Below are positions 859-44,615 of a stretch of DNA of 64,000 nucleotides, piece by piece. Below the pieces are notes generated by a model, which saw nothing but the letters and a program-made list of their open reading frames with translations, searched no databases and had not been told where the DNA came from. The stretch is from an uncultured virus (IMG/VR IMGVR_UViG_3300022700_000186) (lineage: Duplodnaviria; Heunggongvirae; Uroviricota; Caudoviricetes), in IMG/VR virus record IMGVR_UViG_3300022700_000186. One strand, written 5' to 3'. Made by a program: the position numbers and the translations under genes. Every line of letters starts with the position of its first letter. Position 1 is the stretch's first letter.

Positions 859-884
859 CCATAACTTCTATTACATTACTCAAT

Positions 885-954
885 GATTACACTATCGAGT
901 TTATCCAGTTTGCTCCTCAGTTTGTGAGGAGACTGCATTTGCCTTAGTGTAACC
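885..954 (+). ncRNA. Putative small structured RNA leading the tRNA operon
   Basis: ttacacta(887-894)/tagtgtaa(945-952), cagt/actg, ctcctca(913-919)/tgaggag(925-931); followed by a T-run. Confidence 0.5.
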
Positions 955-961
955 TTTTTTT

Positions 962-1097
962 GCCAACGTAGCCAAGTGGTCGAAGGCACCAGACTTAAGT
1001 GAATTATTTTTTTTAAGGGTGATACTCAAAAGACCACTTCGGAGAAATCTGGGAGCTGTAGAGCATAACAACGTAGGTTCGAATCCTACCGTTGGCA
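962..1097 (+). tRNA. tRNA-Leu(TAA) with a 47-nt intron at 37/38 (1000-1046)
   Basis: Acceptor gccaacg/cgttggc, anticodon stem ccaga/tctgg, TAA at 996-998, long variable arm, T-arm gtagg-ttcgaat-cctac; no CCA. Confidence 0.9.
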
Positions 1098-1099
1098 TT

Positions 1100-1181
1100 G
1101 CAGGTATACTCAAGTGGTCTAAGAGAACGGGTTTAGAACCCGTGCTTAGTGCAAACATCGGTTCGAATCCGATTACCTGCA
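1100..1181 (+). tRNA. tRNA-Leu(TAG)
   Basis: gcaggta/tacctgc, acggg-tttagaa-cccgt, atcgg-ttcgaat-ccgat, long variable arm. Confidence 0.93.
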
Positions 1182-1182
1182 T

Positions 1183-1269
1183 GGTAAGCTGGCAGAGTTT
1201 GGTTTATTGCCTTTGGGTGCTAACCAAATGGGTAGAAATACCACACAGGTTCAAATCCTGTGCTTACCG
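1183..1269 (+). tRNA. tRNA-Ser(GCT)
   Basis: ggtaagc/gcttacc, tttgg-gtgctaa-ccaaa, acagg-ttcaaat-cctgt, G73, long variable arm. Confidence 0.9.
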
Positions 1270-1272
1270 TAT

Positions 1273-1357
1273 GGAGAGTTGACCGAGTTCGGTTTAAGGT
1301 GGTTGCCTTGAGAGCATCAGTGTTAACGCACCACAGGTTCGAATCCTGTACTCTCCG
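1273..1357 (+). tRNA. tRNA-Ser(TGA)
   Basis: ggagagt/actctcc, gttgc-cttgaga-gcatc (one mismatch), T-loop ttcgaat, G73, long variable arm. Confidence 0.9.
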
Positions 1358-1392
1358 TTATCTTTAAATATCAATAAACAATACCACCGCCA

Positions 1393-1605
1393 ATGACCTT
1401 TAAAAGATACTTATTCAATAAGTGGGGAAACCCATTCAGAATTATCATTGCTATTTCATTTACCATACTCAGTACTGTATTTATAATGAGTACATCAGTG
1501 AATCCAATCTTCAACTTACTTATAATAAGTTCACTATCAATGTTCATGCTATCTTTTTTTGTCAAGAGTGAGCATGAAAACTATAAGAAACATTTAAATA
1601 AGTAA
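1393..1605 (+). CDS. Small two-TM membrane protein
   Basis: Two hydrophobic stretches, basic termini. Confidence 0.45.
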   Translation: MTFKRYLFNKWGNPFRIIIAISFTILSTVFIMSTSVNPIFNLLIISSLSMFMLSFFVKSEHENYKKHLNK

Positions 1606-1620
1606 CAATCAATTACAATT

Positions 1621-1702
1621 ATTGTGGAAGAGTGTGCTGATAATTTTGTGAAATATTTGTGAGAAAATGTTTTCTACTTTTTCAAAAAATCTCTTCCACA
1701 AT
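1621..1702. repeat. Perfect 12-bp inverted repeat
   Basis: attgtggaagag (1621-1632) / ctcttccacaat (1691-1702). Confidence 0.8.
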
Positions 1703-1758
1703 TCCCTCCCTCAAATTTTAAGAAAATCTTATAAACCCTATCCACTATACTCTATCCA

Positions 1759-1890
1759 GATGGAGGAGTAGAATATCAGGGGCAGGTCTTTCAACTCATT
1801 CATTTTTCATTCATGTTATGTGCGTTGGTTGTTCCTACTTTCATCAGGAAGACAAACCGTTTGCCTCTGACGGTTATCTCCACTCCTCTG
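1759..1890 (+). ncRNA. Putative ~130-nt structured RNA
   Basis: TATA cttataaa at 1728-1735; ggaggagt(1762-1769)/actcctct(1882-1889); tcaggggca(1776-1784)/tgcctctga(1862-1870); inner ggttgttcct/aggaagacaaacc hairpin. Confidence 0.55.
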
Positions 1891-1968
1891 TTCACCTGTT
1901 TCACCTAAATAAAATAAATTAAGTATATAATAATAACTTAATAATAAATAAAAAATAGGTAAAGAATA

Positions 1969-2088
1969 ATGATATTCGAATGCAAAAAATGTGGTATAAA
2001 AGTTGAGCGATTCTATGATTGCTACGTTCGAATTGACAAAATAGATGAATGCCCAAAATGTGGATGTAAAATGAACTATAAAGAATGA
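1969..2088 (+). CDS. 39-aa zinc-ribbon protein (FmdB-like)
   Basis: MIFECKKCG...ECPKCG. Confidence 0.65.
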   Translation: MIFECKKCGIKVERFYDCYVRIDKIDECPKCGCKMNYKE

Positions 2089-2160
2089 TTTTTTATTATC
2101 AAAGTTTAATTTTGATTATCAAAAGAAATATTAAAATAGTATCATTATCATTGTAAGTAT

Positions 2161-2237
2161 GGAAGTGCTTCTGATTGAAGTCGCTTTTCGGGGGTCAACC
2201 CGAAATGAAGATACTTGACCGTATCAAGACTTCAATC
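2161..2237 (+). ncRNA. Three-way-junction RNA with kissing loops
   Basis: P1 gattgaagtc/gacttcaatc, P2 tttcggg/cccgaaa with loop ggtcaa, P3 gatac/gtatc with loop ttgacc; loops are exact reverse complements; strand inferred. Confidence 0.65.
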
Positions 2238-2280
2238 CAAAAACAGTTAATTTAAAATATTTACTTTTCTATTACGATAT

Positions 2281-2781
2281 ATGTTTGAAATAGTTGATAA
2301 TGAACACCGAAAGTACCCAAACGTTGATATCAAACTACCAGAAAGAAAAACAAAACACTCTGCTGGCTATGATTTTTACAGCAATGAATGTAGAACATTA
2401 TACCCTAGAAGAGCTTTTTTACATTGGACAGACGTTAAAGTAAAGTTGCAACCAGATGAAGTTCTTCTTGTTCTTCCCAGGTCTTCAATAGCAATCAAGA
2501 GACATATTCGTTTAACAAACACAATTGGTGTTATTGACTCCGATTACTACTCAAATGAATCAAATGACGGGAACATTGGCATATCAATGTATAACTTCGG
2601 TTATGCTCCAAAGCGAATAAAGAAAGGGGAAAGAATTGCTCAAGGGTTGATAATCAATTACAAAGCGTTTGAAGAAGTAGCAAAAGTAAGGAATGGTGGA
2701 ATTGGTAGTACAGATTTTAATGACCCAGAATCAATTGCTAAATCAAGAAAGATATACAAAATTGGCACAGGTAAAGCTTAA
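2281..2781 (+). CDS. dut: Trimeric dUTPase
   Basis: Motifs SAGYDF, PRSS, GVIDSDY, ERIAQ, RNGGIGST. Confidence 0.95.
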   Translation: MFEIVDNEHRKYPNVDIKLPERKTKHSAGYDFYSNECRTLYPRRAFLHWTDVKVKLQPDEVLLVLPRSSIAIKRHIRLTNTIGVIDSDYYSNESNDGNIGISMYNFGYAPKRIKKGERIAQGLIINYKAFEEVAKVRNGGIGSTDFNDPESIAKSRKIYKIGTGKA

Positions 2782-2793
2782 ATTATCAGTAAT

Positions 2794-2835
2794 CTTTATA
2801 TAGTATAAAGTGTATACATTATACTAGTGATTGAA
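2794..2835 (+). promoter_or_regulatory. Conserved promoter/SD block (copy 1)
   Basis: ctttatatagtataaagtgtatacat...gtgattgaaATG; 24/26 identical to 57852-57877. Confidence 0.75.
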
Positions 2836-3720
2836 ATGGAGACCGAAGAAATAAAAAATAAAATTGAAAACAACGACTCATTTGCAATTCGTTGTTTAAT
2901 GAAGCTATACCAAAAACAAACAACAGATGAACAAGATATTGGTGCAACCGTCGAATATAACAATGTTGGATTTAATGGTGTTGATTCTGAAATTTTATCA
3001 TCATTTGCCCGACAGGTAGAGCAATGGAAAGAAGACAAAAAATATCCTACACCATTATCACCGAAACAAATGGCACTTGTTAAAAAGAAGTTACCAAAAT
3101 ATGCTGGTCAATTAGAAAACATGTTAGAACCAACTGATATCAACATACAGGATTATGAAAAGAAAGAAAGCAAATCTGGAGAAACTATCAAAGGAATTGT
3201 TGACAAAGTCAGTGAAATTAAACAGTATCGTTACGACAAACTCAAGTTCTTTGTTAAAGTAGAAAGTCAAAAACATGGTACAATTAAAACAATGATTGAA
3301 GTTGATGACATGGAAAAACCAACCCGTGATATTCCAGATGTTGGTGATACCATAGAATTCAGAGCTCGCGTGAACGAAAAAGGATGGGCTAATGTTTCTT
3401 TGAAACAACAATATGCAATCATCATCAAAGATAAGGAAACAAAAAATGCAGAAATAACAAACAAAATCAAGACTATTAGGAAGTACCTTAATGAATTAAA
3501 AAGTGATGATATCATTTCAGTATCGTTCTACAATAAGGTTTGGGATACTATGAACAAATTAGAAAACGAAGTTGTTAAGAATATCAACACAAAATCTACA
3601 GAAACGGATTCTGACAACGAAACAAAGCAGGAAACATTAGATACTACTAATGAAAGACAACAACCACCAAAGAAGCATAACAAAGGATTAGCAGAACTCT
3701 TGGATGAGTTCGAAAACTAA
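2836..3720 (+). CDS. Conserved phage-type protein: N-terminal QTxDEQ..NxxGF..LSPKQ..KYAGQL domain, possible OB-fold, acidic tail
   Basis: Motif recognition; ATG 2836 after GTGA SD. Confidence 0.6.
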   Translation: METEEIKNKIENNDSFAIRCLMKLYQKQTTDEQDIGATVEYNNVGFNGVDSEILSSFARQVEQWKEDKKYPTPLSPKQMALVKKKLPKYAGQLENMLEPTDINIQDYEKKESKSGETIKGIVDKVSEIKQYRYDKLKFFVKVESQKHGTIKTMIEVDDMEKPTRDIPDVGDTIEFRARVNEKGWANVSLKQQYAIIIKDKETKNAEITNKIKTIRKYLNELKSDDIISVSFYNKVWDTMNKLENEVVKNINTKSTETDSDNETKQETLDTTNERQQPPKKHNKGLAELLDEFEN

Positions 3721-3753
3721 TCTTTTTCTTTATAAATAAAAAGGAGGTAAAGA

Positions 3754-3900
3754 ATGTATAGAGTAAAGCGTTGTATCAAATGCAATCAAGAATTACATGC
3801 ACACAAAAAGAACGGTCGATACGTTATAAAAAATGCATGTGAACATATTGATTCAGATAAAACATACAATGAAACCCAACTAAGAGAAATATCAAGGTGA
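3754..3900 (+). CDS. Small CxxC/CxH zinc-binding protein
   Basis: MYRVKRCIKC...ACEH; GGAGGT SD. Confidence 0.6.
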   Translation: MYRVKRCIKCNQELHAHKKNGRYVIKNACEHIDSDKTYNETQLREISR

Positions 3901-3905
3901 TATCA

Positions 3906-4067
3906 ATGCCAACATTAGATAAATGGATATCAAAGGGTGATGATGTTTGTGCTTCCTGTGGCAATAAGGATGTACACATTAAGTCTGATACAGGAAAGAA
4001 ATATTGCATGTCCTGTTGGCATGAATATCCCGAAGGATTCAAGACCACTGGCTGGAACTTTATATAG
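3906..4067 (+). CDS. Small zinc-finger protein
   Basis: CASC...YCMSCW; GGTGA SD. Confidence 0.6.
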   Translation: MPTLDKWISKGDDVCASCGNKDVHIKSDTGKKYCMSCWHEYPEGFKTTGWNFI

Positions 4068-4088
4068 TTCCTTTCTATTCTTATTTTG

Positions 4089-4538
4089 ATGTCAGAACAA
4101 TTTGAGCTTACAATACCAGGAAAACCTGTTGCAAAAGGAAGACCGAAATTTACTGTTCGTAGTGGCAAACCGATTGCTTACACACCGAAGAAAACAGCAA
4201 ACTTTGAAAATCTTGTAAAACATGAAGCTTATCAAATTTTTGATACACCTATCAAAGGACCTGTTATGCTTATTGTACAGTTCTATCTTCCAAGACCGAA
4301 ACGAATTATCTGGAAAACTAAACCAATGCCTTGTATCTTTACTGAAAAGAAGCCAGACCTTACCAATTTGGTTAAGTCAGTTGAAGATGGGTTAAATGGT
4401 GTAGCATTTAATGATGATAGCCAGATTTCGATTCTAACGGTTACAAAACGATATCATGGAATGAATAACGAATACTATAAACAACAAGATGGAACACCAT
4501 TAAAACCGATGACGAAAATTATAATCCAAAAAATATAG
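4089..4538 (+). CDS. rusA: RusA-family Holliday junction resolvase
   Basis: IPGKPVAKGRPKF, KPDLTNLVKSVEDGLNG, DDSQI. Confidence 0.9.
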   Translation: MSEQFELTIPGKPVAKGRPKFTVRSGKPIAYTPKKTANFENLVKHEAYQIFDTPIKGPVMLIVQFYLPRPKRIIWKTKPMPCIFTEKKPDLTNLVKSVEDGLNGVAFNDDSQISILTVTKRYHGMNNEYYKQQDGTPLKPMTKIIIQKI

Positions 4539-4668
4539 TATTTACAAAAGTATTTATACCACATCGGACAATATATATTATGGTGTGTTTGTTGCAGTCG
4601 AGTCGTTTTTCTAGACAAATTTTATACCAGTTAATTAGTGTTAAGTATTTTTTGAAAGGTGAAATAAA

Positions 4669-7600
4669 ATGGTAAATCCATTATTAAAGAGAACGTTGGG
4701 AAGGAGCGCTTCTGGCAGGAAAGTTTTAAACATTGTAAAAAGCGCAGAGAAAAAAGCAAAATCAAGCTCAAAAAGTAGTAGTTCAGGTTTTTCATCTGGA
4801 CCTATGGCACAAGCAAAAAAATCAAGTTCATCCCGCTCAAGTTCCAGTTCATCCCGCTCTCGTTCTTCTCGTTCTCGTTCTTCTTCTCGTTCTTCTAAAA
4901 AAACAAAAACATCACCAGTTAAAACACCGAAGCCACCAGTTCCAAAAGTAGGTCCTAAAACACCAGCTGATATTTTAAAAGAACAATATGGTATTGATAA
5001 ACCATCTGGTTCTACAAAAAAAGACACTCCACCACCAAAAAGAACATCAACAAAGAAAAGTGGAGGTGGAGGTGGAAGTACACAACCGTCAGGAACTATG
5101 CCAGTTCCAGGTCAAGGAGCTCCATTAACAGTAATTGAACAGCAACTTTTACAAAGTAACAATCCAGAATTAGGAAAAATAATGTATGAAAGAAGAACAG
5201 GTGAGGATTTACCTCCACCATCTTCAGGAATGAAAACGATTAGTCCACCTGTAGGATATGGTTCTTCTGTTGATACTGCTAAAGAAGTTGGTTCAGGTAA
5301 AACTGGTTGGCAAGGTCCTATGCAAGGTGCAGAAATTCAAAAGGAACAACAAGAAGAATTTGTTGGACCACCTTCACCATCACAATTTCAAAGGGATGGA
5401 TTTCCAACTTCACAAACTGATACTCTTCCAGATAGACTGAAACCAGAAAATGTTGTTAGTGGAAAAAAACGAATTGATACTCAAACATTTAGAAATAAGA
5501 TATTAGATAGATTGCCAGATGATAGTAAAGCTGAAGAAGTTTTAACAAGTGCTTTCAACATTCAAGACATGGCTGCAGCTTCAGGAATAACACCCCAGCA
5601 ATGGCAAGAAATACAAAAAGTAAATGAACAGAACGTTCAAAACCTTGAGCAAGCAAAAGAAACATTGAATATGGTTAAATCATCTGATGTTGAAGCATGG
5701 GAAGTTGATGGCGAAGAAGTATCAAGAAGCGAACTTATTAATATGCTTGAAGGTAACGTTAATGAAATAGAGGAAGCTATCGGTTCAGGAAAAGTAAAGA
5801 TAGGCGAAGAAGAATATGTACCTGGTCAAGATACATATGGAAGATTTCTAAAAGGTTTTGAAAAAGAATATGATGAAGCAGTTTATGAGGGAAGTTTCGG
5901 CGAAGGCGGTGTAAACCAGTATTATGCTTTTGTTCCACGAGATACTTATGTAGATATTCAAAGAGAAGTAAGATTAGGTCAAATGAGCGAAGAAGAAGCT
6001 CAGGAAAGATTAAACCAAATCAACACACAAAACATGATGACAAAACCAAAACCTCAACGTGATGCATGGGCTCAGAATCAGTTGCAGTTTGAAAATCCAG
6101 AAATTACAAACTTCCGTGAAGATATTGGTGATTTAATAACTGGAACAAGAGGTCCAATTGGTTGGGGATTAACAGGTGGAGGAAGCAAAGACGTACTCAA
6201 AAAGTTAGCAAGAGAATATGATGTTGACCCGAGTCTTGTAGATGAAGGTAAGTACGATACACTTCAGGAACAGCTTGTTTCATCTTTCACTCAGAAAGCT
6301 GTTGAAGAGACAGGAGGAAAATTTGAACCAACTGTCGGATACGAAGAATTCAAAGCAGCTAACCCAGCAGTTTCAGGACTTGAATACAATCCAGAAGAAG
6401 GTTCATGGAATGTGGAAATGGATTATGAATCTGCTCAAAGAAAAGAAATGAGAAATCTTTGGGAAGAAAACCCATTAGCTGCTGTTGGAAGAGGAACAGT
6501 TGATGTTATATCTCAGTACCCAAAAGCATTAACAACTGCCGCTGGTTATGGATACCGTTCTCTTGTAGGAGAAGAACAACCATCATATCAAGACCAACTT
6601 TTTGGTGAGTTAGCAAAATCTTCTTATGGAATATCGCAATCAATGAGAAAAGGAGATGCATCTGATTATTGGAAACAAACAGTTTTTGAATCACCTGCTA
6701 TGACTGATGTTTACTTACCTGTTCTTGGTGGCGCAGCTTTTTCAGCAGCTGCTCCTACAATAGGTGCAGCTAGTGGGAGATTAGGTTCATGGGTAACATC
6801 AAAAACAGGAGGGAGATTAGTAGGTGGCGCAGGAAAATGGATAGCTGCACATCCAGGAGCTGCAAAAGCAGCTGCCTACGGATTAACTGGTGGTTTAGTA
6901 TATGGTCCAACTGCTGGTCCTGCAGCTTATCAAGAATACGTTACAGGAGAAGGGGAAACAGGTTCAACAGCAGAAGCAGCTGCTCGTTCAACATTACAAT
7001 TGGGTGGTTTTCTGACGGGTGCTGGTTCAACGCTACCAGGTTCAAAAGGTAAAAGAACAATTCAAGATTGGGGTCGAGCAAGGGCAGATTCTTACATGAC
7101 AAGTAGAGGTTATGTAAGAGACCCAAAAACAGGAAAATGGGTTCAAGACCCTTACAAAATAAGAACAAAATCACCAGCAGAATTAGAAGAAGCTCTTGCA
7201 GCTTCTAAAGAAGGTTTTACACCTGATTTCTTAAAAACAAAGTATCAAGGGGAAACATTTGCAAAAGGATGGGAATCATACGCACAACCAAAAATAGCTG
7301 GTGGAAGGTTTGCAAAATATAGAAGCGGCTTAATAGATGACGTTCCAAAGTTAACAGGAAATGTAGGAGGAACCCAAACAGGTGCAATGGTTCAATATCA
7401 ACCTTCTGTGCCACCGCGAGGAGGAAGCGGAATATTAGAAAGTGGAAGACTGGCTGGTTGGAAACCTTTTAGTACTGATATTGCAGCTTATAATCAAATT
7501 CAAACAGGAACAGGTGCGAGAATACCTCAAGAATGGGGAAGTCTACAACCAGATTTAGGTGGTAGAATACCAACAAGAGTAACCAACGTACCAACTACAA

Positions 7601-10329: not shown

Positions 10330-10758
10330 ATGACAAAAACAAAAAAAGAGTTTTTAAATAAATACGCAAGTAATCCAGAACTTGCCAGAAAAGTATTCAA
10401 TCAAATGTCGGCAAGTTGGAAAGAAATAATCAAATACCCAGAAGATTTTAGGGACGCAGGAGCTGGTGTTGGCGGTTTTATTTACTATAATGAAACTGTA
10501 CCATTTGCAAAACAAAATATGACATTAATCACCAGAGCATTACATGAGTTTGAGCAGGAAATTGGAATGCCACTAAAAAAACCAACCGATGATGAAACAC
10601 AATACCTAAACTGGTTAGCTTGGTTTGCTTTAGAAAACACCATTGATGATGTAATTCAATACAAAGAAAGCGACATAGATATGTATCCGAAATATGTAAC
10701 ACCAAATACTAAAACAAAGTTTAATCCAGGATGGAAGAAAAACGTTTGGGGCGTATAA
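10330..10758 (+). CDS. Phage-type protein (GFIYYxET..NWLAWFALE) with C-terminal W-tag
   Basis: Ends PGWKKNVWGV. Confidence 0.7.
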   Translation: MTKTKKEFLNKYASNPELARKVFNQMSASWKEIIKYPEDFRDAGAGVGGFIYYNETVPFAKQNMTLITRALHEFEQEIGMPLKKPTDDETQYLNWLAWFALENTIDDVIQYKESDIDMYPKYVTPNTKTKFNPGWKKNVWGV

Positions 10759-10983
10759 ATGAAGAAAGTACCAATAATTAGGGTTCAACCAGATGATGCA
10801 ACCATTGATATGCTACGAGAAATGGGAGCGCAAATGACCGAAACCGTTCCTTTCAGAACAAAAAAAGAAGCAGAAAAATATGCAGAAAAAATGATGATGA
10901 AAGGAAGGAGAGCGAGGGTATACGAAGACAAATACACCAGTATGGAAGACTTCAGATGGAATGTGGAGGTTGAAATAGAATGA
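10759..10983 (+). CDS. Small protein with N-terminal VPII tag and FxTKxxA helix
   Basis: MKKVPIIRV; PFRTKKEAEKYA. Confidence 0.7.
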   Translation: MKKVPIIRVQPDDATIDMLREMGAQMTETVPFRTKKEAEKYAEKMMMKGRRARVYEDKYTSMEDFRWNVEVEIE

Positions 10984-11282
10984 AAAAAACACCAATTATA
11001 AGAGTTGATGGAAGCAAAAGTTATGATGAATCAGAACTTACAGAAGAAGAAAAAGAATTTCTTGAAATAGCAAAAGACATTGCAGAAGGTAGAAAAAATC
11101 CATACACAAGAGAATGGAGGGATATGTTCGGAAAAGAACGTGTTAAAAGATATCAAGGTAATGTTTTTTATAGTAATATAGCACAAAGAACGAAACACTA
11201 TACAACATCTGCTAAAAGAGACAGAGCTTATGATTTTGTTTATGATTATTTAATTGAACATGGATATAACGTTCATAGTTAA
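10980..11282 (+). CDS. Hypothetical protein with N-terminal TPII tag
   Basis: MKKTPIIRVDG. Confidence 0.7.
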   Translation: MKKTPIIRVDGSKSYDESELTEEEKEFLEIAKDIAEGRKNPYTREWRDMFGKERVKRYQGNVFYSNIAQRTKHYTTSAKRDRAYDFVYDYLIEHGYNVHS

Positions 11283-11303
11283 GAAGTAAGGAGATGATGA
11301 AAA

Positions 11304-11609
11304 ATGAGTTGGGGAACGCCAATAATTGATGTGACAACAGGAAAAGTAAAAGGTTTATCAAACCGAGATTTGGTTGAACGGTTTGCCCGTGGATTTGAAC
11401 GGGGAGCTTCTAATCGAATGGAAATCAAAAGAGATGGTAATGAAACTATTATCGTAGGATACGGTCACGCTGTTTATGCTCGAAGGAAACCAAATGGAAC
11501 TGTCATTCTTTATGATGGTTGGTATGGTTACTCACCGACAACAAGCACACACTTGAACATGATAAGACCGTATGCTGAAGTTGTAAACAAAAGAAAACCA
11601 AGTTGGTAA
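11304..11609 (+). CDS. Phage-type YSxTTSxH family protein with TPII tag
   Basis: MSWGTPIIDVTTG; GYSPTTSTH. Confidence 0.7.
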   Translation: MSWGTPIIDVTTGKVKGLSNRDLVERFARGFERGASNRMEIKRDGNETIIVGYGHAVYARRKPNGTVILYDGWYGYSPTTSTHLNMIRPYAEVVNKRKPSW

Positions 11610-11610
11610 T

Positions 11611-11868
11611 ATGAGTTGGAAAGACAATTACTGGGAGAAAGATTCGGTTTATTTGAGAGAAAAATTTAATGATGTTGTCAAACCATTAAGAAAATCTGGT
11701 TCTTGTATCATGTCAAAGAAATGGAAGGAGATGAAAAGAAAACCAAAAAATATTGAGAGCATCTTATCCTTTGATGATGTAGAATACTTTAGAAAGAAAG
11801 ATAATTTAGACATTATCTATGCATTTTTCCCAAAAGAGAAAAGTTGGTTCAAATTGACAAAAAGGTGA
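11611..11868 (+). CDS. Hypothetical protein with N-terminal W-tag
   Basis: MSWKDNYWEK. Confidence 0.65.
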   Translation: MSWKDNYWEKDSVYLREKFNDVVKPLRKSGSCIMSKKWKEMKRKPKNIESILSFDDVEYFRKKDNLDIIYAFFPKEKSWFKLTKR

Positions 11869-11873
11869 ATTTA

Positions 11874-12113
11874 ATGGCAAGATGGAAACATAATATTTGG
11901 GGAGTAAAAAACTTCGAATCTGGATTTGACTTAACACCAATTAGAGTAGGTGATACTGTTGTTATTACAAAACCAAAGAATGAAAGAGAAATGACAAATG
12001 AAGGAAAGAAAGCAACAGTAATAAAGGTATGGAACAGAACAAAAGAGCTAACAATAGAGTTTGCTGATGGTGAAGAACTTGATGTTAGTAGAAACATTGT
12101 GAAAAGAGTTTAG
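11874..12113 (+). CDS. KOW/SH3-like beta-barrel protein with N-terminal W-tag
   Basis: MARWKHNIWGV; IRVGDTVVIT..GKKATVIKV..IEFADG. Confidence 0.65.
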   Translation: MARWKHNIWGVKNFESGFDLTPIRVGDTVVITKPKNEREMTNEGKKATVIKVWNRTKELTIEFADGEELDVSRNIVKRV

Positions 12114-12120
12114 TGATAAG

Positions 12121-12351
12121 ATGGTAAGATTATTCAATCCTGTAACAAACCGATTTGAAGAAGTGGATGATTACGAGTACTTTGATGTAAAGGGTACCTT
12201 TCCACAAACAGAAGATAAACCAATATGTTTACGGTGTGGTAAAAAGTTAGAAACTGAAATTGATTTAGAAACAGGAATTTGTGCTGATTGTTGGGAAGAA
12301 AAAGACTATAAAAATAAATCTGAAAAATTAAGATGGAATAGGAATTGGTAA
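12121..12351 (+). CDS. Zinc-finger protein
   Basis: CLRCGKKL...GICADC. Confidence 0.7.
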   Translation: MVRLFNPVTNRFEEVDDYEYFDVKGTFPQTEDKPICLRCGKKLETEIDLETGICADCWEEKDYKNKSEKLRWNRNW

Positions 12352-12797
12352 TGTTTAATCCACCAGAAGTACCAGTAATATACGATATAAATGAACTTCC
12401 TCCACCAAAGAGGGGTAAGATTCGTTTATATCATGCTGTAAGCAACGCCAGAACCAATCAAATCTTAAGGGAAGGGTTATTGCTTAACAAGATAAAATCA
12501 ACCGATGCTGGTGGTATATGGTGTTCTACAAGTCCTTATTACAATATGAAAAGAGATACAATAGTACTTGATGTTCCATTGAAAGATACATGGAGAGCAA
12601 ATCGTGATGAGTATGTTGTTTACCGTGATATCAAACCGAGTGATATGAAAGGAGTATTGAAGGTTTACCGATTTGGCAATCAAGGAAGAGCGTTACAGCG
12701 TTCTGATGAACTTCCGAAGTTTATTGATAAACATGGGTTAGATTTTGTCCTTAAAAAATCATACGGAAAAGAACTAAAAAAAGATTTTGGGAATTGA
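12351..12797 (+). CDS. ADP-ribosyltransferase-fold protein (ART 1)
   Basis: RLYHAV..ILREGL..GIWCST..EYVVYRDIKP pattern of H-type ART/Tpt1-like enzymes. Confidence 0.65.
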   Translation: MFNPPEVPVIYDINELPPPKRGKIRLYHAVSNARTNQILREGLLLNKIKSTDAGGIWCSTSPYYNMKRDTIVLDVPLKDTWRANRDEYVVYRDIKPSDMKGVLKVYRFGNQGRALQRSDELPKFIDKHGLDFVLKKSYGKELKKDFGN

Positions 12798-12800
12798 AAA

Positions 12801-13022
12801 ATGAATTGGAAAACTGATTATTGGGGAGTAAAACCAAAAGGGTATACAATCGTAGTTGATGCCGGAAAACCATATGAAATCAGAGTTGACTCTAAAAGAG
12901 AGCTGAAAAGAGAACTTAGAAAGTTAGAAAAGGAAGCAAATAAGGATAATCCACATTTCGATATTTTCATCTATAATAAGTATGGTGTTGACGTAACAGA
13001 TGAGGAGATGATGTTTACTTAA
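12801..13022 (+). CDS. Hypothetical protein with N-terminal W-tag
   Basis: MNWKTDYWGV. Confidence 0.7.
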   Translation: MNWKTDYWGVKPKGYTIVVDAGKPYEIRVDSKRELKRELRKLEKEANKDNPHFDIFIYNKYGVDVTDEEMMFT

Positions 13023-13028
13023 TTCACT

Positions 13029-13113
13029 CTCACCTATATCATAGGTGGGGCAACAAACCACCAAAATTTTACCACCTTAGGGAAGCTCACCCCTTCCCTC
13101 TTATAGGTGGTAA
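13029..13113 (+). other. Intergenic structured element with alternative hairpins
   Basis: cacctat/ataggtg; ttaccacct(13069-13077)/aggtggtaa(13105-13113) enclosing agggaag/cttccct. Confidence 0.55.
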
Positions 13114-13139
13114 TCAAGAGAAAAAAGGATATTGATAAT

Positions 13140-13349
13140 ATGATTAAAAAAGTACCAATAATTAATATAAATACAATCAGTAGCAGAAGATACAATAAGA
13201 AATTTTGGGATGACTTCATTGATTCGTTTGAACACATCCACCAAGTAATACATGATGTTGAAAAAAACGGTTCTGACCTTGATAAAGAATATCTTAATGG
13301 ATTAATATCTAATTATGGCGGACCGAAGCGTTGGAAGGTGAGATTGTAA
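13140..13349 (+). CDS. Hypothetical protein with VPII tag
   Basis: MIKKVPIININ. Confidence 0.6.
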   Translation: MIKKVPIININTISSRRYNKKFWDDFIDSFEHIHQVIHDVEKNGSDLDKEYLNGLISNYGGPKRWKVRL

Positions 13350-13350
13350 C

Positions 13351-13524
13351 ATGGTCAGAGTGAAACAAAGTAAGAAAGGGTGGGTTAGCGTTACTAAGCT
13401 TCCTTGTGGGAAGTATATGACAGCTGCATTCATTGAGGATAGGGTGAATCCTATTCAGAAAATCAGTAATAAAAAAAGTACTGCTAATAAAAAAGCCAAA
13501 AAAATGATTAAAAAATATTTATGA
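13351..13524 (+). CDS. 57-aa basic protein
   Basis: Manual translation; GGTGA SD; fills the gap between neighbours. Confidence 0.55.
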   Translation: MVRVKQSKKGWVSVTKLPCGKYMTAAFIEDRVNPIQKISNKKSTANKKAKKMIKKYL

Positions 13525-13539
13525 AAAAGGTGAAAAAAA

Positions 13540-13914
13540 ATGAGTAAAGATTGGAAATTCGGAAAGAATGCTTTTGATAAACATAAATACTATCATAAAT
13601 CAAGAAAGGTAGTTCTGATACCTCATTCAACAGTTACTACACATGGAGGAAAATTGAAGGAACCTGTTTCTTCTGGTTATAGTATAGAAATAGAAACTCC
13701 ATATGAACCAAAGGAAGTTCAATATTATCTTAAGGATACAACAAGAAGTTTTCCTAACTATATCAACAACCATAAACATTACAAAACAATCAAGGATGTA
13801 AGAAAAGCAATGGTAAAGTGGACGAAGAACAACAATGAAAATGTTGACAGAATGGTTATGGAAATGCAAACAACAGAAGCACCAGGATGGAAAAAGAACG
13901 TTTGGGGAGTCTAA
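13540..13914 (+). CDS. Hypothetical protein with C-terminal W-tag
   Basis: Ends PGWKKNVWGV. Confidence 0.7.
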   Translation: MSKDWKFGKNAFDKHKYYHKSRKVVLIPHSTVTTHGGKLKEPVSSGYSIEIETPYEPKEVQYYLKDTTRSFPNYINNHKHYKTIKDVRKAMVKWTKNNNENVDRMVMEMQTTEAPGWKKNVWGV

Positions 13915-13915
13915 A

Positions 13916-14122
13916 ATGAAAAGAGTACCAATAATTACCGTTGACGGCAGACGGATAAATGGAGCAGTTGAACCTTATATAAATACGATTTCAGGAAGGG
14001 CAAGATACAAAGGAACCGAAGTCGAAGATGAGTATGGTAGATGGAACGATAGATACAGCACAAACAGAGGAGAGTTTGTTATCCACAAAGGAAAAAGACA
14101 TCATATATATGAGGTCGATTAA
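13916..14122 (+). CDS. Hypothetical protein with VPII tag
   Basis: MKRVPIITVDG. Confidence 0.65.
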   Translation: MKRVPIITVDGRRINGAVEPYINTISGRARYKGTEVEDEYGRWNDRYSTNRGEFVIHKGKRHHIYEVD

Positions 14123-14123
14123 A

Positions 14124-14411
14124 GTGAGAAGAGTACCAATTATTGACCCAGTCACAGGTCAAAGAGTAAAAGACCCATTAGAAGAAGCTGCTGAAGAGAT
14201 ATTCGATAAATATCAATCAAAATTCGGTGATGATGCAATTTATGACTACAGAACTGAAGATGGTTTTATTGTGTTTGATTATCCCATGTTTTTTGATAGA
14301 ACAGAATTTGCTGATGATATAGAAAAACAAACTAATTATTTAATAAAAGAAGCGAAGAAGAAACCAAACTTCAATATCTACGTTGCAAATTACTTTGTGG
14401 GGAGAGGATAA
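14124..14411 (+). CDS. Hypothetical protein with VPII tag; paralog of 14416-15051
   Basis: GTG start RRVPIIDPVTG; IFDKYQSKFG..AIYDYR..KQTNYLIKEA. Confidence 0.65.
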   Translation: MRRVPIIDPVTGQRVKDPLEEAAEEIFDKYQSKFGDDAIYDYRTEDGFIVFDYPMFFDRTEFADDIEKQTNYLIKEAKKKPNFNIYVANYFVGRG

Positions 14412-14415
14412 AAAA

Positions 14416-15051
14416 ATGCAAGACAAAAAACACGTAGTTGGTAAAAGAATATTCGATAAATATAAACAGAAGTTTGGTGAAAAAGCCATCTTTGATTGGA
14501 GAGTTGACAGTGGAACTCTCGATTTTAAACAACCAAAAGGATTTGGAACTTACAATACAAAAACAAAACTTTCTGACACACCATGGTCTTCGATAGAAGA
14601 ACTTGAGAAATACGAGGACAAAAATTTATGGAAACAACAGAATTATATTGAGAAGGAAGCTATAAAGGAAAAAGCATCATTCCGTATCAATGTTGGACAT
14701 GTGTCTGTTCCAAGAACAATGAAGAAATATAGTAGAAGTAAATTGAGGGAAATAGCTAGAACAGTATATAGAAAGTACAAGAAAAAATATGATAGTTCAT
14801 GTGCAGGTAATTATTATAATCATCCTTATTGGTACTGGAAAATTACAAATTTCGGTGGTGATGTTATTTATTGGTATACAGAACCTTGGCTGATTCCAAG
14901 TTCAAGTGATGTGTCATTAAGAAAACAAATGGACGAACAAAGAAAATACTTATTTAGAGAACTTGAGAAGTATGACGCTGTAATTGAAAATTTACCACCA
15001 GGAGGAAATACCAAGCCTGGTATATGGAATTCATTTTTAGTAAAGTTTTAG
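14416..15051 (+). CDS. Two-repeat paralog of the upstream protein
   Basis: IFDKYKQKFG..AIFDWR..KQQNYIEKEA, then VYRKYKKKY..EQRKYLFREL. Confidence 0.65.
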   Translation: MQDKKHVVGKRIFDKYKQKFGEKAIFDWRVDSGTLDFKQPKGFGTYNTKTKLSDTPWSSIEELEKYEDKNLWKQQNYIEKEAIKEKASFRINVGHVSVPRTMKKYSRSKLREIARTVYRKYKKKYDSSCAGNYYNHPYWYWKITNFGGDVIYWYTEPWLIPSSSDVSLRKQMDEQRKYLFRELEKYDAVIENLPPGGNTKPGIWNSFLVKF

Positions 15052-15081
15052 ACAATGAAAAAGATAAGAGATGATTAAAAA

Positions 15082-15330
15082 ATGCCAAAAATAAAGAACA
15101 CAAAATATGCAGGTTCAATAGAAGCTGTTATGGAATATCAACCAGACTTTATGCTGTTAACAGATAGTCAGGATGTTGAAGCAATTAAAGATTACTTTGG
15201 TAACGATGAACTAATTAATGAATATGATGGGTTCTTCGTAAAAATCAGAGATGGTGACTACTCAAGAATTTATGCTTTTTACGGAAACGTACCATTCAAT
15301 TGGAAAGAACTTTACGAAATAATTTGGTAA
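15082..15330 (+). CDS. Acidic hypothetical protein
   Basis: ORF track. Confidence 0.6.
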   Translation: MPKIKNTKYAGSIEAVMEYQPDFMLLTDSQDVEAIKDYFGNDELINEYDGFFVKIRDGDYSRIYAFYGNVPFNWKELYEIIW

Positions 15331-15355
15331 AAATAATAAAATGTCGTGATGAAGA

Positions 15356-15442
15356 ATGCCAGATAGAGATGGAAAAGGACCAAGAAAAAGAAGTAGATAT
15401 CCAAGTAAGAAGAAAGGTGGAAGAAAGAAAGGAAAATGTTAA
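15356..15442 (+). CDS. 28-aa basic microprotein (MPxxDGxGP...C, DUF5320-like)
   Basis: MPDRDGKGPRKRSRYPSKKKGGRKKGKC. Confidence 0.5.
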   Translation: MPDRDGKGPRKRSRYPSKKKGGRKKGKC

Positions 15443-15451
15443 GGTGAAAAA

Positions 15452-15667
15452 ATGGGATATAGAAAAAAATATAATTCTGGAAGTCTAAAAGTTGTACAAT
15501 TTGAAAACAGACATGGCAAAAAGAAATGGGGAGTAGTAAATGGTTCTAAATTAGTTAGTGCTGTTAAAGGATATGACACAAAAAAATTTGCAAATGAAGT
15601 AAGGGATAGATTATACAAAGAAAAAATATATGTGTTTAGTCCAGGTAAAAAAAGGATAAAGAAATGA
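15452..15667 (+). CDS. Small basic protein
   Basis: GGTGA SD; GYDTKKFANEV. Confidence 0.6.
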   Translation: MGYRKKYNSGSLKVVQFENRHGKKKWGVVNGSKLVSAVKGYDTKKFANEVRDRLYKEKIYVFSPGKKRIKK

Positions 15668-15704
15668 GATGGATAGTTTTTGGTAATGAAAAAGGTGAAA
15701 AAAA

Positions 15705-16172
15705 ATGAGCACAAGATGTATAATAGCAAAGAAAATGCAAGGTGGAAAATACAAAGCAGTTTACTCACATTGGGATGGATACCCAGAAAAACCTGGTGCT
15801 GGTTGGACTTTAAGAAACAATTACACAACAACACAAAGTGTAAACAAACTGTTATCAAAAGGAGACATAAGTTCTCTTCGAGGAAAAATCGGAAGGAAAC
15901 ATGACTTTGATGATTATCAAACTGCAAAAATAAATGACTGGTCGACTTTCTATTATAGAGATAGAGGGGAATCATGGTCAGAAACAAAACCAAAGATGTT
16001 TAGCAGTCTTAAAAATCTTATAGATTATGCTTCTGGCTCATGGGCTGAGTATCTCTACATTTTCGAAAATGGAGAATGGCATTATATAGATTTGGAACAA
16101 CCAGGTACAATGATGTCAGCAGGTGGAGCATCACCAACTCCAGGATGGCAAACCAATTATTGGGGTGTGTAA
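15705..16172 (+). CDS. Widespread phage family protein (MSTR..YxHWDGYP..EYLY) with C-terminal W-tag
   Basis: Ends TPGWQTNYWGV after a Gly/Ser/Ala linker. Confidence 0.75.
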   Translation: MSTRCIIAKKMQGGKYKAVYSHWDGYPEKPGAGWTLRNNYTTTQSVNKLLSKGDISSLRGKIGRKHDFDDYQTAKINDWSTFYYRDRGESWSETKPKMFSSLKNLIDYASGSWAEYLYIFENGEWHYIDLEQPGTMMSAGGASPTPGWQTNYWGV

Positions 16173-16543
16173 TGAGTATCACAGAATTGAACCGTGTGAT
16201 TAAACAATTTGCCAAAACACATGGTACTGATATCTACCGTTACGGATTGTGTAGTGAGTTTGCAGTTGCTTTAAAACGATTTCTCGGTGGTGGTGAACTG
16301 TATAAACACGGTTTATTTCATGTTTGCCTAAAATATAAAGGATATTACTGTGATATTAGAGGATGCCAAACAGAATCACAACTTCTAATGGATGACCCAA
16401 TGGCATTATCAAAAGATGCTAACCGTAAAGCAAAACCAGAAGAAGTTCAACATTTAATGAATCTTCTTAAAAATGACCAAGTTCAAAAAATAATTAAAGG
16501 ATTAAAAGACGCAAAAAAAATGGTGGTGAAAAAATTAGATTAA
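16172..16543 (+). CDS. Papain/transglutaminase-like Cys-His-Asp protein
   Basis: YGLCSEFAVAL..FHVCL..YCDIRG. Confidence 0.6.
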   Translation: MSITELNRVIKQFAKTHGTDIYRYGLCSEFAVALKRFLGGGELYKHGLFHVCLKYKGYYCDIRGCQTESQLLMDDPMALSKDANRKAKPEEVQHLMNLLKNDQVQKIIKGLKDAKKMVVKKLD

Positions 16544-31073: not shown

Positions 31074-31625
31074 ATGAGAAAATATAAAATGAAAAAAGTG
31101 TACACAATAGGGATAATGTTATCCTTTGTTGTCGTATTTTTAGGGGCTGGTGCGTTAGCTGACAACGAAAATGTTACAGTATCTTGGGTCGTTCCCGCAG
31201 ATACAAGTTTTTCCTTGGCATTTGCTGGTGCTGAAACAGAAATAGATTTCGATGATAATGTAGATGGAACGGACTTTACACACGCCGCTCCAGATAGTCA
31301 AGCATCTGGAACACCAATGTTGACCTTAACAAATAATGGAAATACTCCCGTAGATGTTAAAATGGCATTTGATTCTGTGTTTGATGATGATGGAATAGCA
31401 TTTTTTAATGCTAGCATTGATAATATTGATAACTCTTCATTATTCTTTTGGGAAGGACAAGCTATGGGTGGTACCGACAATGCTACTAACAACCAAACTG
31501 TAAAGGAAGATTTAGCAATAGGAGCAAATCTACAAATTTGGATTTGGTCCACTGGTCGTAGCGTCGAGCAAAGTGAAGTTGATACTGATACGGAAACGTT
31601 AGCAATAACAACAATAGATTCCTAG
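31074..31625 (+). CDS. Secreted beta-sandwich glycoprotein, family A copy 1
   Basis: Signal peptide; VTVSWVVPADTSF..SQASGTP.LTLTNNGN..IWIWSTG. Confidence 0.75.
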   Translation: MRKYKMKKVYTIGIMLSFVVVFLGAGALADNENVTVSWVVPADTSFSLAFAGAETEIDFDDNVDGTDFTHAAPDSQASGTPMLTLTNNGNTPVDVKMAFDSVFDDDGIAFFNASIDNIDNSSLFFWEGQAMGGTDNATNNQTVKEDLAIGANLQIWIWSTGRSVEQSEVDTDTETLAITTIDS

Positions 31626-31640
31626 ACAGGTTGAATTTCT

Positions 31641-32672
31641 ATGAAAAAGAAGGTTAAGGTAGTAATATCTCTGGTAGCAATAATTTCCGTTTCGGTGACA
31701 GCGATAGCATTGTACACAACAAACAATTCCGAAAATAAGAACCCTTTCAGTATATTTGACTTGATTCATGATGTTGGTAATCCAAAATACAATTATACAG
31801 ATGATGTTCAAATCCAAAAGTCAAACTATCTTCCTTCTATTAAAAACAACATAACTGGAGATTATAGACCAAAGTACGATATTAGAGATGAAGAATATGA
31901 GTGGATTTTCGGCGAATTACCACCGTTCCCATCTGATTTCTTTCAAGTATTAGAGCTTGTAGAAGATGGAAAGATTACAGATTATGCTAGAATATCTCCT
32001 TCATATTGGAAACAACCAGAATTTTATGTTGGATGGTTTTCTTCCTTAGACTTATACAATGATAACAATCCTAATACTTGGATTCATTCTGGATATGGTT
32101 GCTACCCTCTCATAAAACAAGTCAGTGCAAATGCAGGAAATGACATAGTTGTAAACACCTATTTTAAGAGTAGTTACGCTGTTGAAGCATATCAAGGATT
32201 GATTGTAAGTCCATATTTACCAGAGTCTGCTCTTTCAATGACTGGAGTTAGTCTTTATGATAATCCAGAAGATGTTGAAAAATATATCTCTGTTGAAATT
32301 ACAAATGAAAATAATCAACTATATGAATCCTTTAAGAATGATATAGAAAAAACGAATGTTAATAGTAGTGATTGGTTCACTGTACTTGAGCCGACCTATA
32401 ATCCACATTTGAATTATAAAGGAGAAATTACTTCTTATTCAGGATTTCCCGAAAGCTGGGTAAGATTGTTAAACCTTTCCGTTTCTATATCGGATGATTG
32501 CCCTCCAGGAGATTATGTTGTTGCAATAGAAACATTAACACCATGTTTTGATATAAATCAGGAATTTTATTATTCTTTAGAACATGAATATTATGGAAAG
32601 AAATATGTTCCTGGTGGAAAAATATACAAAAGAACAATACCACATTTTCAATTAATATTAGAGGTGAATTAG
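31641..32672 (+). CDS. Membrane-anchored protein, family B copy 1
   Basis: NNITGDYRP..LPPFPSDF..YWKQPEFY..GYGCYP..DCPPG..PHFQLIL. Confidence 0.75.
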   Translation: MKKKVKVVISLVAIISVSVTAIALYTTNNSENKNPFSIFDLIHDVGNPKYNYTDDVQIQKSNYLPSIKNNITGDYRPKYDIRDEEYEWIFGELPPFPSDFFQVLELVEDGKITDYARISPSYWKQPEFYVGWFSSLDLYNDNNPNTWIHSGYGCYPLIKQVSANAGNDIVVNTYFKSSYAVEAYQGLIVSPYLPESALSMTGVSLYDNPEDVEKYISVEITNENNQLYESFKNDIEKTNVNSSDWFTVLEPTYNPHLNYKGEITSYSGFPESWVRLLNLSVSISDDCPPGDYVVAIETLTPCFDINQEFYYSLEHEYYGKKYVPGGKIYKRTIPHFQLILEVN

Positions 32673-32676
32673 AAAA

Positions 32677-33222
32677 ATGGAAAAAAAGATAAAAATGGAA
32701 AAAAAGACAAAAACAAAGATATTTGGAATTGCCATAGCTTTTTGCTTGGTTGTAGTATTTGGAGCAGCTGCTACAGTTACAGCTTCAAATCAGAATATTG
32801 TAGTTACTTGGATTGTTCCAGGTGATACAAGTTTTTCTTATGATTTGGCTGGTGATGAAACTGAAATTGTATTTGATTGCGACGGAATGAACTTTTCTGA
32901 AGTAGGAATGCGAAGTCAAGCATCTGGAACACCAGGTTTAACTATCACAAATGGAGGTAATAAGGCATTACAAATCAATATGACTTTCAGTAGTGCTTGG
33001 TATGACGAAGGTATTGATTTCTTTAATGTAAGTGTCAATACAAACGATAATACAACTGCGTTTTGGTGGACAAACGCAAATGAAACTGATAATCAAACTG
33101 TTGTTGATTCATTACCAATTTCAAACAGCGAAGATTTCTGGTTTTGGTCTACTGGAACAGAAGTAGGTGAAACCGCAGAAGGTAGTGCTGACACAGAAAC
33201 GCTTGAAATTTGGGCGACATAA
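32677..33222 (+). CDS. Secreted beta-sandwich glycoprotein, family A copy 2
   Basis: IVVTWIVPGDTSF..SQASGTPGLTITNGGN..FWFWSTG. Confidence 0.75.
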   Translation: MEKKIKMEKKTKTKIFGIAIAFCLVVVFGAAATVTASNQNIVVTWIVPGDTSFSYDLAGDETEIVFDCDGMNFSEVGMRSQASGTPGLTITNGGNKALQINMTFSSAWYDEGIDFFNVSVNTNDNTTAFWWTNANETDNQTVVDSLPISNSEDFWFWSTGTEVGETAEGSADTETLEIWAT

Positions 33223-33234
33223 GAGGAAAATTTT

Positions 33235-43340: not shown

Positions 43341-43351
43341 GAGATAATAAT

Positions 43352-43777
43352 ATGAAATTTCCAGATTATTGGGGAGTAGGAAAAAACAGGACACATTTCA
43401 ACTTAGACACCGACAGAGATGGTGTACGAGATTTTGTAGATTGTAAACCTTTTAATCGGAGAAGACAAGGACATATAGAATTTGAAACGATGAATTCTTT
43501 ATACAGACTTATCTATGCGACACCAGAAGAATACCAACATTTACCAGTAGATGCAGAACCAGAATTTGTTCTTCAGAAGTTGGAAGGTGAAGGTCGTTTA
43601 GGAACAGTTGCATCAGCTCCCGAATCAGACCCTCCCTATATAAGTAGAGGTGTGTTAACTATGCCAGGATATCATACATCACTATTAGCAGACCCAGATT
43701 ATGTACAATCATTTCTGGATTCTTGTTGGAGCAGACCACCATCTGTTCAAGATAATTATAGGGTAGAAAGGATATGA
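43352..43777 (+). CDS. Hypothetical protein with W-tag and D-rich tag
   Basis: MKFPDYWGV..HFNLDTDRDGVRDFVDCKPFN. Confidence 0.7.
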   Translation: MKFPDYWGVGKNRTHFNLDTDRDGVRDFVDCKPFNRRRQGHIEFETMNSLYRLIYATPEEYQHLPVDAEPEFVLQKLEGEGRLGTVASAPESDPPYISRGVLTMPGYHTSLLADPDYVQSFLDSCWSRPPSVQDNYRVERI

Positions 43778-44611: not shown

Positions 44612-44615
44612 AAAG

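Follow-up and report, generated by a model that had tools for sequence, protein, structure and literature searches.

A perfectly paired three-way junction with complementary hairpin loops upstream of a viral dUTPase gene: a candidate self-pairing RNA

Locus and architecture of the element

The IMG/VR record IMGVR_UViG_3300022700_000186, from an uncultured virus assigned to the Caudoviricetes, was analysed as a stretch of 64,000 nucleotides (hereafter the window), and we describe here a 65-nt element at positions 2173–2237. The element is located in an intergenic gap of 192 nt (2089–2280) between a small open reading frame (ORF) and a dUTPase gene, the ATG of which stands 44 nt past the element end. 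It consists of three nested perfect helices of 10, 7 and 5 bp that together form a compact three-way junction, and its two hairpin loops, GGTCAA (L2) and TTGACC (L3), are exact reverse complements (6/6). A preliminary description, made from the DNA letters alone, had given the same helices, loops and junction strands (P1 10 bp, P2 7 bp, P3 5 bp; GCT, TGAA and AA), all of which are right to the base, and had correctly placed the structure in AT-rich intergenic DNA just upstream of the dUTPase gene (2281–2781). The parts of the element and of its putative leader are as follows.

2161–2172, plus strand: putative leader at the 5' end of the RNA, to which the minimum free energy (MFE) fold gives a weak hairpin of 4 bp; its start at about 2161 is suggested by the spacing from an upstream box
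2173–2182, plus strand: 5' arm of P1, GATTGAAGTC (sequence reading, fold and junction scan)
2183–2185, plus strand: junction J1/2, GCT (sequence reading)
2186–2205, plus strand: P2 hairpin, stem 2186–2192/2199–2205, loop L2 GGTCAA at 2193–2198
2206–2209, plus strand: junction J2/3, TGAA (sequence reading)
2210–2225, plus strand: P3 hairpin, stem 2210–2214/2221–2225, loop L3 TTGACC at 2215–2220
2226–2227, plus strand: junction J3/1, AA (sequence reading)
2228–2237, plus strand: 3' arm of P1, GACTTCAATC (sequence reading and fold)

The arms of P1, GATTGAAGTC and GACTTCAATC, are 100% complementary (10/10 Watson–Crick pairs), and pairing is equally complete in the stems of P2 (TTTCGGG with CCCGAAA, 7/7) and P3 (GATAC with GTATC, 5/5). 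RNAfold returned the three-way junction as both the MFE and the centroid structure of the plus strand, at −27.9 kcal/mol (z −4.11, with 0/200 shuffles as good), and the same three-way junction as both structures of the minus strand, at −31.8 kcal/mol (z −4.97, again 0/200). No reading frame of more than 31 codons, counted from stop to stop, runs across the element.

Chance expectation

A scan for perfectly paired junctions, in which P1 had to reach 7 bp and each of two hairpins 5 bp and no junction strand could exceed 6 nt, found the element as the sole match in the real window, reported four times in shifted junction registers. Among 100 dinucleotide-preserving shuffles of the 64-kb window, a junction of 22 bp was obtained in none and one of at least 19 bp in four, so that the earlier claim that such nesting is unlikely by chance is borne out even before the loop match is counted. 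The 6/6 loop match contributes, by simple arithmetic, a further factor of about 1/4096, and the chance expectation of the junction together with the loop match is far below 1e-5 per window.

The loop pair on its own, searched as GGTCAA followed after 5–30 nt by TTGACC, occurred at least once in 12 of the 100 shuffles, and neither motif is enriched in the window (GGTCAA, 15 against 14.0 expected; TTGACC, 9 against 8.3). Neither hairpin recurs elsewhere in the window, where the element is present only once. The exceptional property is the combination, that is, the architecture, and not the folding energy.

Promoter-like boxes and neighbouring genes

Two copies of a TATA-like box, TTAAAATA, are found in the gap, one on either side of the element, and the features that surround it are listed below.

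1969–2088, plus strand: upstream neighbour, an ORF of 39 aa with two CxxC pairs, zinc-ribbon-like
2131–2138, plus strand: TATA-like box TTAAAATA, putative archaeal-type promoter of the element, 22 nt before 2161
2252–2259, plus strand: second TTAAAATA box, 21 nt ahead of the ATG of dUTPase, for which it may provide the promoter of a leaderless mRNA
2281–2781, plus strand: downstream neighbour, the dUTPase gene (Pfam PF00692, E 3.9e-19; phrog_135)

No Pfam or PHROG family was recognised in the 39-aa ORF. A run of six T residues (2089–2094), which may act as an archaeal termination signal, stands right behind the stop of this ORF and 79 nt before the element, while the second box begins 14 nt past the element end.

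Across the window, the box pattern TT[TA]A[TA]ATA was found 23 times on the plus strand and 15 times on the minus strand. Six of the 23 plus-strand boxes fall within the first 4.1 kb, and the stretch from 859 to 4970 is free of minus-strand boxes. Three ORFs with a length of 60 aa or more, starting at 1393, 2281 and 4089, have their ATG 21–22 nt behind a box.

Box at 1363, plus strand: ATG at 1393, ORF of 70 aa
Box at 2252, plus strand: ATG at 2281, dUTPase
Box at 4059, plus strand: ATG at 4089, RusA

For ORFs of this size, no box-to-ATG gap of 0–19 or 25–29 nt was found, and the minus strand provided no case. The starts at 1393, 2281 and 4089 lack a Shine–Dalgarno sequence; most other genes of the window have AGGTGA- or GGAGG-like sites. 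A TATA box at such a spacing before an ATG without Shine–Dalgarno sequence is the signature of archaeal leaderless mRNAs, and the boxes and genes found here would, on this pattern, be archaeal TATA boxes that drive leaderless mRNAs.

The box at 2131–2138 would then be the working promoter of the element. Since a separate box, downstream of the element, precedes the dUTPase gene, which lacks a Shine–Dalgarno sequence, the element need not belong to the dUTPase mRNA. The simplest reading is that the element is under its own plus-strand promoter and that dUTPase is transcribed from a separate promoter further downstream, and, judging from this arrangement, the element is more likely a small plus-strand transcription unit of its own than a dUTPase riboswitch.

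Several other signals were considered and rejected. A sigma-70 promoter with TTGACC as its −35 box has no −10 box at the right distance, and sigma-70-like sites are not enriched in the window (19, against 17.6 ± 4.3 in shuffles). An intrinsic terminator is not predicted behind P1, where the T run is absent. The possibility that the P1 arm mimics the recurrent translation start GTGATTGAAATG was also discarded, as GATTGAA is not enriched (11 against 9.8 expected).

Of the remaining boxes, three (at 2795, 54621 and 57853) are followed by a leader that they have in common, in the form GTGATTGAAATGG or GATGATTGAAATGG. A TTTAAATA box at 1593–1600 is found about 22 nt before an 82-nt structure (1621–1702) that represents a second candidate small RNA; it is closed by a 12-bp stem (1621–1632/1691–1702) and folds at −22.8 kcal/mol (z −3.68, 0/200 shuffles as good). 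No Rfam family matched this structure in a scan of 1350–2300 at E<=10.

Tests against known RNA families

The comparison with Rfam by Infernal that the preliminary description had proposed yielded no family at the gathering threshold and none that is credible at E<=10. With Rfam 15 at gathering thresholds, only four tRNAs were found in the whole window. At E<=10, cmscan of 1900–2500 returned five weak matches, none of them to pRNA, a riboswitch or CRISPR-DR, and 1350–2300 returned noise-level matches only. The sole Rfam match touching the element was AbsR25 (2212–2293, minus strand, E 9.2), with 14.2 bits against a gathering score of 47. No covariance-model match to ROOL, GOLLD, the signal recognition particle (SRP), CRISPR-DR or small RNA (sRNA) families reached its gathering score. 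ARAGORN called nothing at the element, and the tRNA calls of ARAGORN and Rfam are confined to 962–1358.

A tRNA or tRNA-like gene (RF00005, ARAGORN) was therefore rejected for the element, which has two 6-nt loops, three helices and no tRNA call. A box C/D sRNA was likewise discarded by eye, since neither the order nor the spacing of CUGA (2171) and AUGAAGA (2205) fits, and so was a mimic of an integron attC site or a CRISPR repeat, for which the core motifs are absent by eye and no CRISPR-DR match was found.

The preliminary description had also stated that the hammerhead motif CUGANGA and the core of the purine aptamer are lacking. The former is indeed absent on both strands, and the absence of the latter agrees with the junctions GCU, UGAA and AA and with the Rfam result. 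Among the interpretations that it had offered, a new non-coding RNA or a dimerising RNA remain the best, whereas a riboswitch-like element has become weaker because a box of its own (2252–2259), with a leaderless ATG 21 nt behind it, appears to serve the dUTPase gene, and this box stands downstream of the element.

A closely related strain

Among the 12 runs listed, none was an RNA run, which speaks neither for nor against expression. Contigs of two runs, X1 and X2, cover 1900–2800 and differ from the window 23 times in 901 nt (97.4% identity). The upstream ORF carries three of these changes in 120 nt and the dUTPase gene 17 in 501 nt, while a single change falls within the 65-nt element (C>A at 2184, in the unpaired J1/2). 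All stem bases, all loop bases and both TATA-like boxes are unchanged in this strain, a pattern that is compatible with constraint on the stems and loops. A possible pairing of P2 with dUTPase codons 7–11 (10/12 complementary) is lost in the same strain and was rejected.

A separate 593-nt contig of X1/X2, at about 4x depth against about 40x, has exact matches to 2135–2152 and 2255–2273. They stand in swapped order and about 480 nt apart, and the matched stretches of the window flank the segment that holds the element. Relatedness through these 18–19-mers was rejected: they gave 17 and 12 matches in IMG/VR, all with unrelated flanks, and single matches to such AT-rich strings, as distinct from two in one contig, are at chance level.

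Search for relatives

Relatives of the dUTPase were found in the protein collection at 98%, 75% (P0002), 73% (P0003) and 59% (P0004) identity, and the N-terminus MFEIV of the window protein is shared with relatives. The window dUTPase has 166 aa against 145 aa in P0002–P0004, and it shares with its 98% twin a C-terminal tail of about 21 aa past the conserved GGIGST motif. Single-query scans of IMG/VR and of JGI metagenomes detected no close relative of the dUTPase, and a scan of IMG/VR found no relative of the neighbouring protein encoded at 2827–3720.

The element itself was sought in several ways. The exact 20-mer of the P2 hairpin has two matches in IMG/VR, both in unrelated GC-rich sequence. 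The loop-plus-junction pattern matched 38 times in IMG/VR, about the number expected by chance, with the stems present in 0/38; the best of these matches had 6/7 pairs of P2 and 3/5 of P3. A relaxed loop pattern matched at least 118 loci in IMG/VR, and both hairpins were present in none among the matches listed. A covariance model (R1) built from the single sequence of the element gave only two self-matches, on the two strands of the element, in a search of the window and 81 dUTPase loci. It gave no match in 80 IMG/VR dUTPase loci, in 151 genomes of the class of the archaeal metagenome-assembled genome (MAG) with the nearest genome-collection dUTPase, or in four whole viral records, and noise of at most 10.7 bits in 29 further loci.

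The 161 loci (81 and 80) with dUTPases of 36–56% identity thus contain the element in no case. In the two distant loci that were read, L041 and L348, hardly any gap separates dUTPase from the ORF before it, which indicates that the 192-nt gap is lineage-specific. L348 is an IMG/VR record of 73,890 bp in which a 38-aa ORF with two CxxC pairs (1377–1500) ends a few bases before a 51%-identical dUTPase, the same gene order as in the window and without the 192-nt gap. Synteny between the two was rejected, as the two small CxxC proteins are not significantly alike and a 1606-aa protein is unmatched in that record.

The virus

The window has a GC content of 33%, and 56 of its 63 ORFs of at least 120 aa are on the plus strand; all seven minus-strand ORFs overlap plus-strand ORFs. 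Among the 78 ORFs scanned with Pfam and PHROGs, the families recognised were dUTPase, RusA, a NosD/beta-helix protein, TSP3 repeats, GNAT, a methyltransferase, a DHH phosphoesterase, an ATP-dependent ligase, DUF7222 and DUF2085. A blastn search of 1900–2800 against 50,697 phage records gave no DNA match. With few recognised families and no DNA similarity, the window looks like a novel virus.

A cluster of four tRNA genes occupies 962–1358, with the element about 815 nt downstream of it. Three of them, Leu-TAG, Ser-GCT and Ser-TGA, span 1099–1358, and the fourth (962–1097), missed by ARAGORN, reached 53.1 bits with Rfam; about 50 nt are inserted in its anticodon loop. We read the anticodon as UAA (Leu), with the insert placed after position 37. 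A short intron at this site suggests that a viral tRNA gene carries an intron of archaeal type. The nearest dUTPase of the genome collection is encoded in an archaeal MAG and is 50% identical to P0004, which served as the query. The tRNA insertion, this dUTPase relative and the promoter pattern are weak signs that point the same way, and the host is probably archaeal.

Three repeated regions were also observed. In 10726–16173, four ORF ends share a conserved 3' end encoding ...GW(K/Q).N.WGV (repeat family D3), and several neighbouring small genes have shared starts (D6, D9 and D14); the region appears to encode a family of small paralogous proteins arranged in tandem. The gene pair 31074–31625/31641–32672 is duplicated as 32677–33222/33235–34242 (repeats D4, D13 and D16; 31074–34242). 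The ORFs at 42792, 43352 and 44616 (42792–45173) have a common N-terminal module with a TSP3-like DTDRDGVPDW motif (D2).

A possible self-pairing RNA and its alternatives

The element is real as a sequence feature, and its status as an RNA is unproven. Our preferred but tentative interpretation, which we hold to be possible and short of probable, is that it represents a small stand-alone plus-strand RNA of a novel, probably archaeal virus that associates with itself through L2 and L3. The RNA would run on the plus strand from about 2161 to somewhere in 2245–2270, and the transcript would fold as a rigid three-way junction that displays two complementary 6-nt hairpin loops. L2 of one copy would pair with L3 of the next, 'hand in hand', and closed dimers or small rings would result. 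We infer the transcription, the strand, the RNA ends, the pairing between molecules and any downstream role, as a scaffold or a decoy.

The calculated energies bear on the fold. The three-way junction, at −26.4 kcal/mol, is 8.7 kcal/mol more stable than the alternative fold with intramolecular L2:L3 pairing (−17.7 kcal/mol), and the loop–loop duplex alone amounts to −6.4 kcal/mol. When two 6-nt loops are fully paired, both stems and the loop helix stack as one rod, here of about 18 bp, in which the open ends of P2 and P3 would be about 50 Å apart. As the bases of P2 and P3 are tied by 4 nt, complete pairing of the loops within one molecule looks impossible; on these geometric grounds, kissing of the loops with all six pairs in one molecule is unlikely, and the loops most likely pair between molecules.

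Several observations weigh against this interpretation. The steric case is an argument from reasoning and not from a model, and pairing of 2–3 bp within one molecule may occur. All 28 of the 28 possible pairs (22 in the stems and 6 between the loops) are Watson–Crick, with no G-U among them, and such pairing is less typical of an old RNA than of a structure of very recent origin or of a palindrome at the DNA level. The minus strand folds better (z −4.97 against −4.11), its P1 can be extended by 8 pairs through two G-U pairs, and the single-sequence covariance model also matches it, with 30.1 bits; the better fold and the model match of the minus strand mean that the strand is not fixed by structure alone. 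By GC-corrected MFE, the element ranks as the seventh best 80-nt region among 12,786 windows (z −3.74), so that six other regions equal or beat it by folding energy alone. No clear termination signal follows P1, the first run of four T residues being at 2266–2269, and read-through into the dUTPase gene is therefore possible. In the X1/X2 strain, the 56 bases of the stems and loops show no change against an expectation of about 1.4, a difference that is not significant. No homologue of the element was found in the collections searched, and hence covariation provides no support.

Some of these observations would also fit a site that works as DNA, such as a set of protein-binding palindromes or a replication or recombination site, double-stranded or transiently extruded, upstream of the dUTPase promoter; operators of viral regulators beside the B recognition element (BRE)/TATA region are an example. 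The exclusively Watson–Crick pairing speaks for such a site, and the element is pseudo-symmetric, both strands giving the same topology and loop order. In size, P2 (arms of 7 bp) and P3 (arms of 5 bp), each with a 6-bp spacer, correspond to typical dimer operators. The TATA-like box at 2252 follows the end of the element after 14 nt, and the fold of the element as single-stranded DNA is stable too (−14.5 kcal/mol). Palindromes bound by proteins, however, need neither nesting within a 10-bp repeat nor complementary spacers, whereas both the nesting and the complementary loops would be predicted for a single strand that folds. The asymmetric spacing of the outer and inner repeats (10 against 7 nt) also means that the element is not one simple palindrome, and the lack of enrichment of GGTCAA/TTGACC and of any second copy of either hairpin in the window likewise speaks against a DNA-level site, which we consider unlikely. 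A cis-acting mRNA structure appears more unlikely still, whether it belonged to a long dUTPase 5' leader starting from the box at 2131, with riboswitch-like or translational control, or formed a protective 3' end of an upstream transcript. The element does stand 44 nt before the dUTPase ATG with no strong T run between them, several aptamers are three-way junctions with interacting loops, and stable structures at transcript ends can block exonucleases. Against this, a separate TATA-like box stands between the element and dUTPase, at leaderless spacing from the latter, the T6 run behind the stop of the upstream ORF precedes the element by 79 nt, and the junction strands of only 3, 4 and 2 nt would leave little space for a ligand pocket, with no riboswitch family matching at E<=10. 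The element is moreover missing from the 161 loci with 36–56%-identical dUTPases, L041 and L348 are nearly gapless there, and the complementarity of P2 to dUTPase codons 7–11 is gone in the 97% strain.

The structure might also be a functionless by-product, such as a recent palindromic insertion or the product of a template switch, neither expressed nor bound, a possibility to which we assign about the same low probability as to the cis-acting mRNA structure. The element has been seen in one viral species only, its perfect stems point to a young age, more distant dUTPase loci lack the gap in which it is located, and several coding regions of the window fold about equally well. On the other hand, the chance estimate is far below one per window, and the stems of P2 and P3 are unrelated, so that the loop match does not derive from an inverted duplication. 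The promoter-like spacing from a TATA-like box and the intact stems and loops in the 97% strain, against 2.5–3.4% changes in the neighbouring genes (from small numbers), are further points that argue against a by-product. A self-pairing RNA, if real, would provide a very small and readily testable model of RNA self-assembly. Were the element a DNA site or a relic, its value would be lesser, and the archaeal-type promoters and leaderless genes would still help to read this virus.

Comparison with known systems

In a search of the open-access literature for three-way junctions with kissing loops in RNAs of phages or archaeal viruses, the papers listed included some on pRNA and on ROOL/GOLLD beside unrelated ones, and none on archaeal viruses. 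Hammerhead ribozymes share a three-helix junction with the element, and in natural hammerheads the distal loops interact. The element differs from them in that the nearest string is CTGATTG at 2171, there is no 7-nt junction strand and Rfam gives no match.

Purine riboswitches resemble the element in their P1–P2–P3 topology, in two hairpin loops that can touch and in a position upstream of a nucleotide-metabolism gene. Their pocket is formed by conserved junctions that are much longer than 3, 4 and 2 nt, and their loops are joined by two Watson–Crick pairs plus other contacts, against six full pairs in the element. P2 and P3 of the element are, in addition, of unequal length, a promoter-like box stands between the element and the gene, and there is no covariance-model match.

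ROOL and GOLLD are described as phage and prophage RNAs of unknown function, often located beside tRNA islands, that form homo-oligomers with kissing loops among their contacts, and many GOLLD members exceed 800 nt (PMC12286853). The element is similar to them in being placed about 815 nt behind a four-tRNA cluster. It differs in size, both of those RNAs being large with many helices and the element 65 nt long, and it has no Rfam match. Additions concerning the ROOL and GOLLD phage RNAs came as late as 2025, and a 65-nt element of the same logic in a quite different, probably archaeal virus would, if the interpretation as a self-pairing RNA is true, show the principle to be more widespread.

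The closest parallel is provided by the prohead or packaging RNA (pRNA) of phi29-like phages. A 174-nt RNA encoded at bp 147–320 of the genome, pRNA multimerises through a domain of about 75 nt. This domain has a three-way junction and carries two loops, complementary to each other, that form 2–5 bp between molecules, by which pRNA assembles into dimers to hexamers (PMC4201828, PMC5066667). The element and pRNA are alike in being virus-encoded three-way junctions in which the 5' and 3' parts close the first helix, and the element too displays two mutually complementary loops (6/6). The CE loop of pRNA is a bulge loop, whereas both loops of the element are hairpin loops, and six kissing pairs are possible in the element against the 2–5 of pRNA. 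Covariance models of Rfam, which should cover pRNA, gave no match of the element to any family at E<=10. The genomes differ as well: the one that encodes pRNA is small, about 19 kb, and that of the element exceeds 64 kb, with the genes of the window on one strand only and no phi29-type genes recognised among the 78 ORFs scanned (Pfam, PHROGs). The full proposal, in which a natural self-assembling RNA of about 65–85 nt from an archaeal virus forms dimers or rings as an independent invention of the principle of pRNA and, on a larger scale, of ROOL and GOLLD, and acts as a scaffold in the viral cycle, seems to us slightly more unlikely than the DNA-level site discussed above. By this comparison, the resemblance of the element to pRNA would be at most one of working, and not one of family membership.

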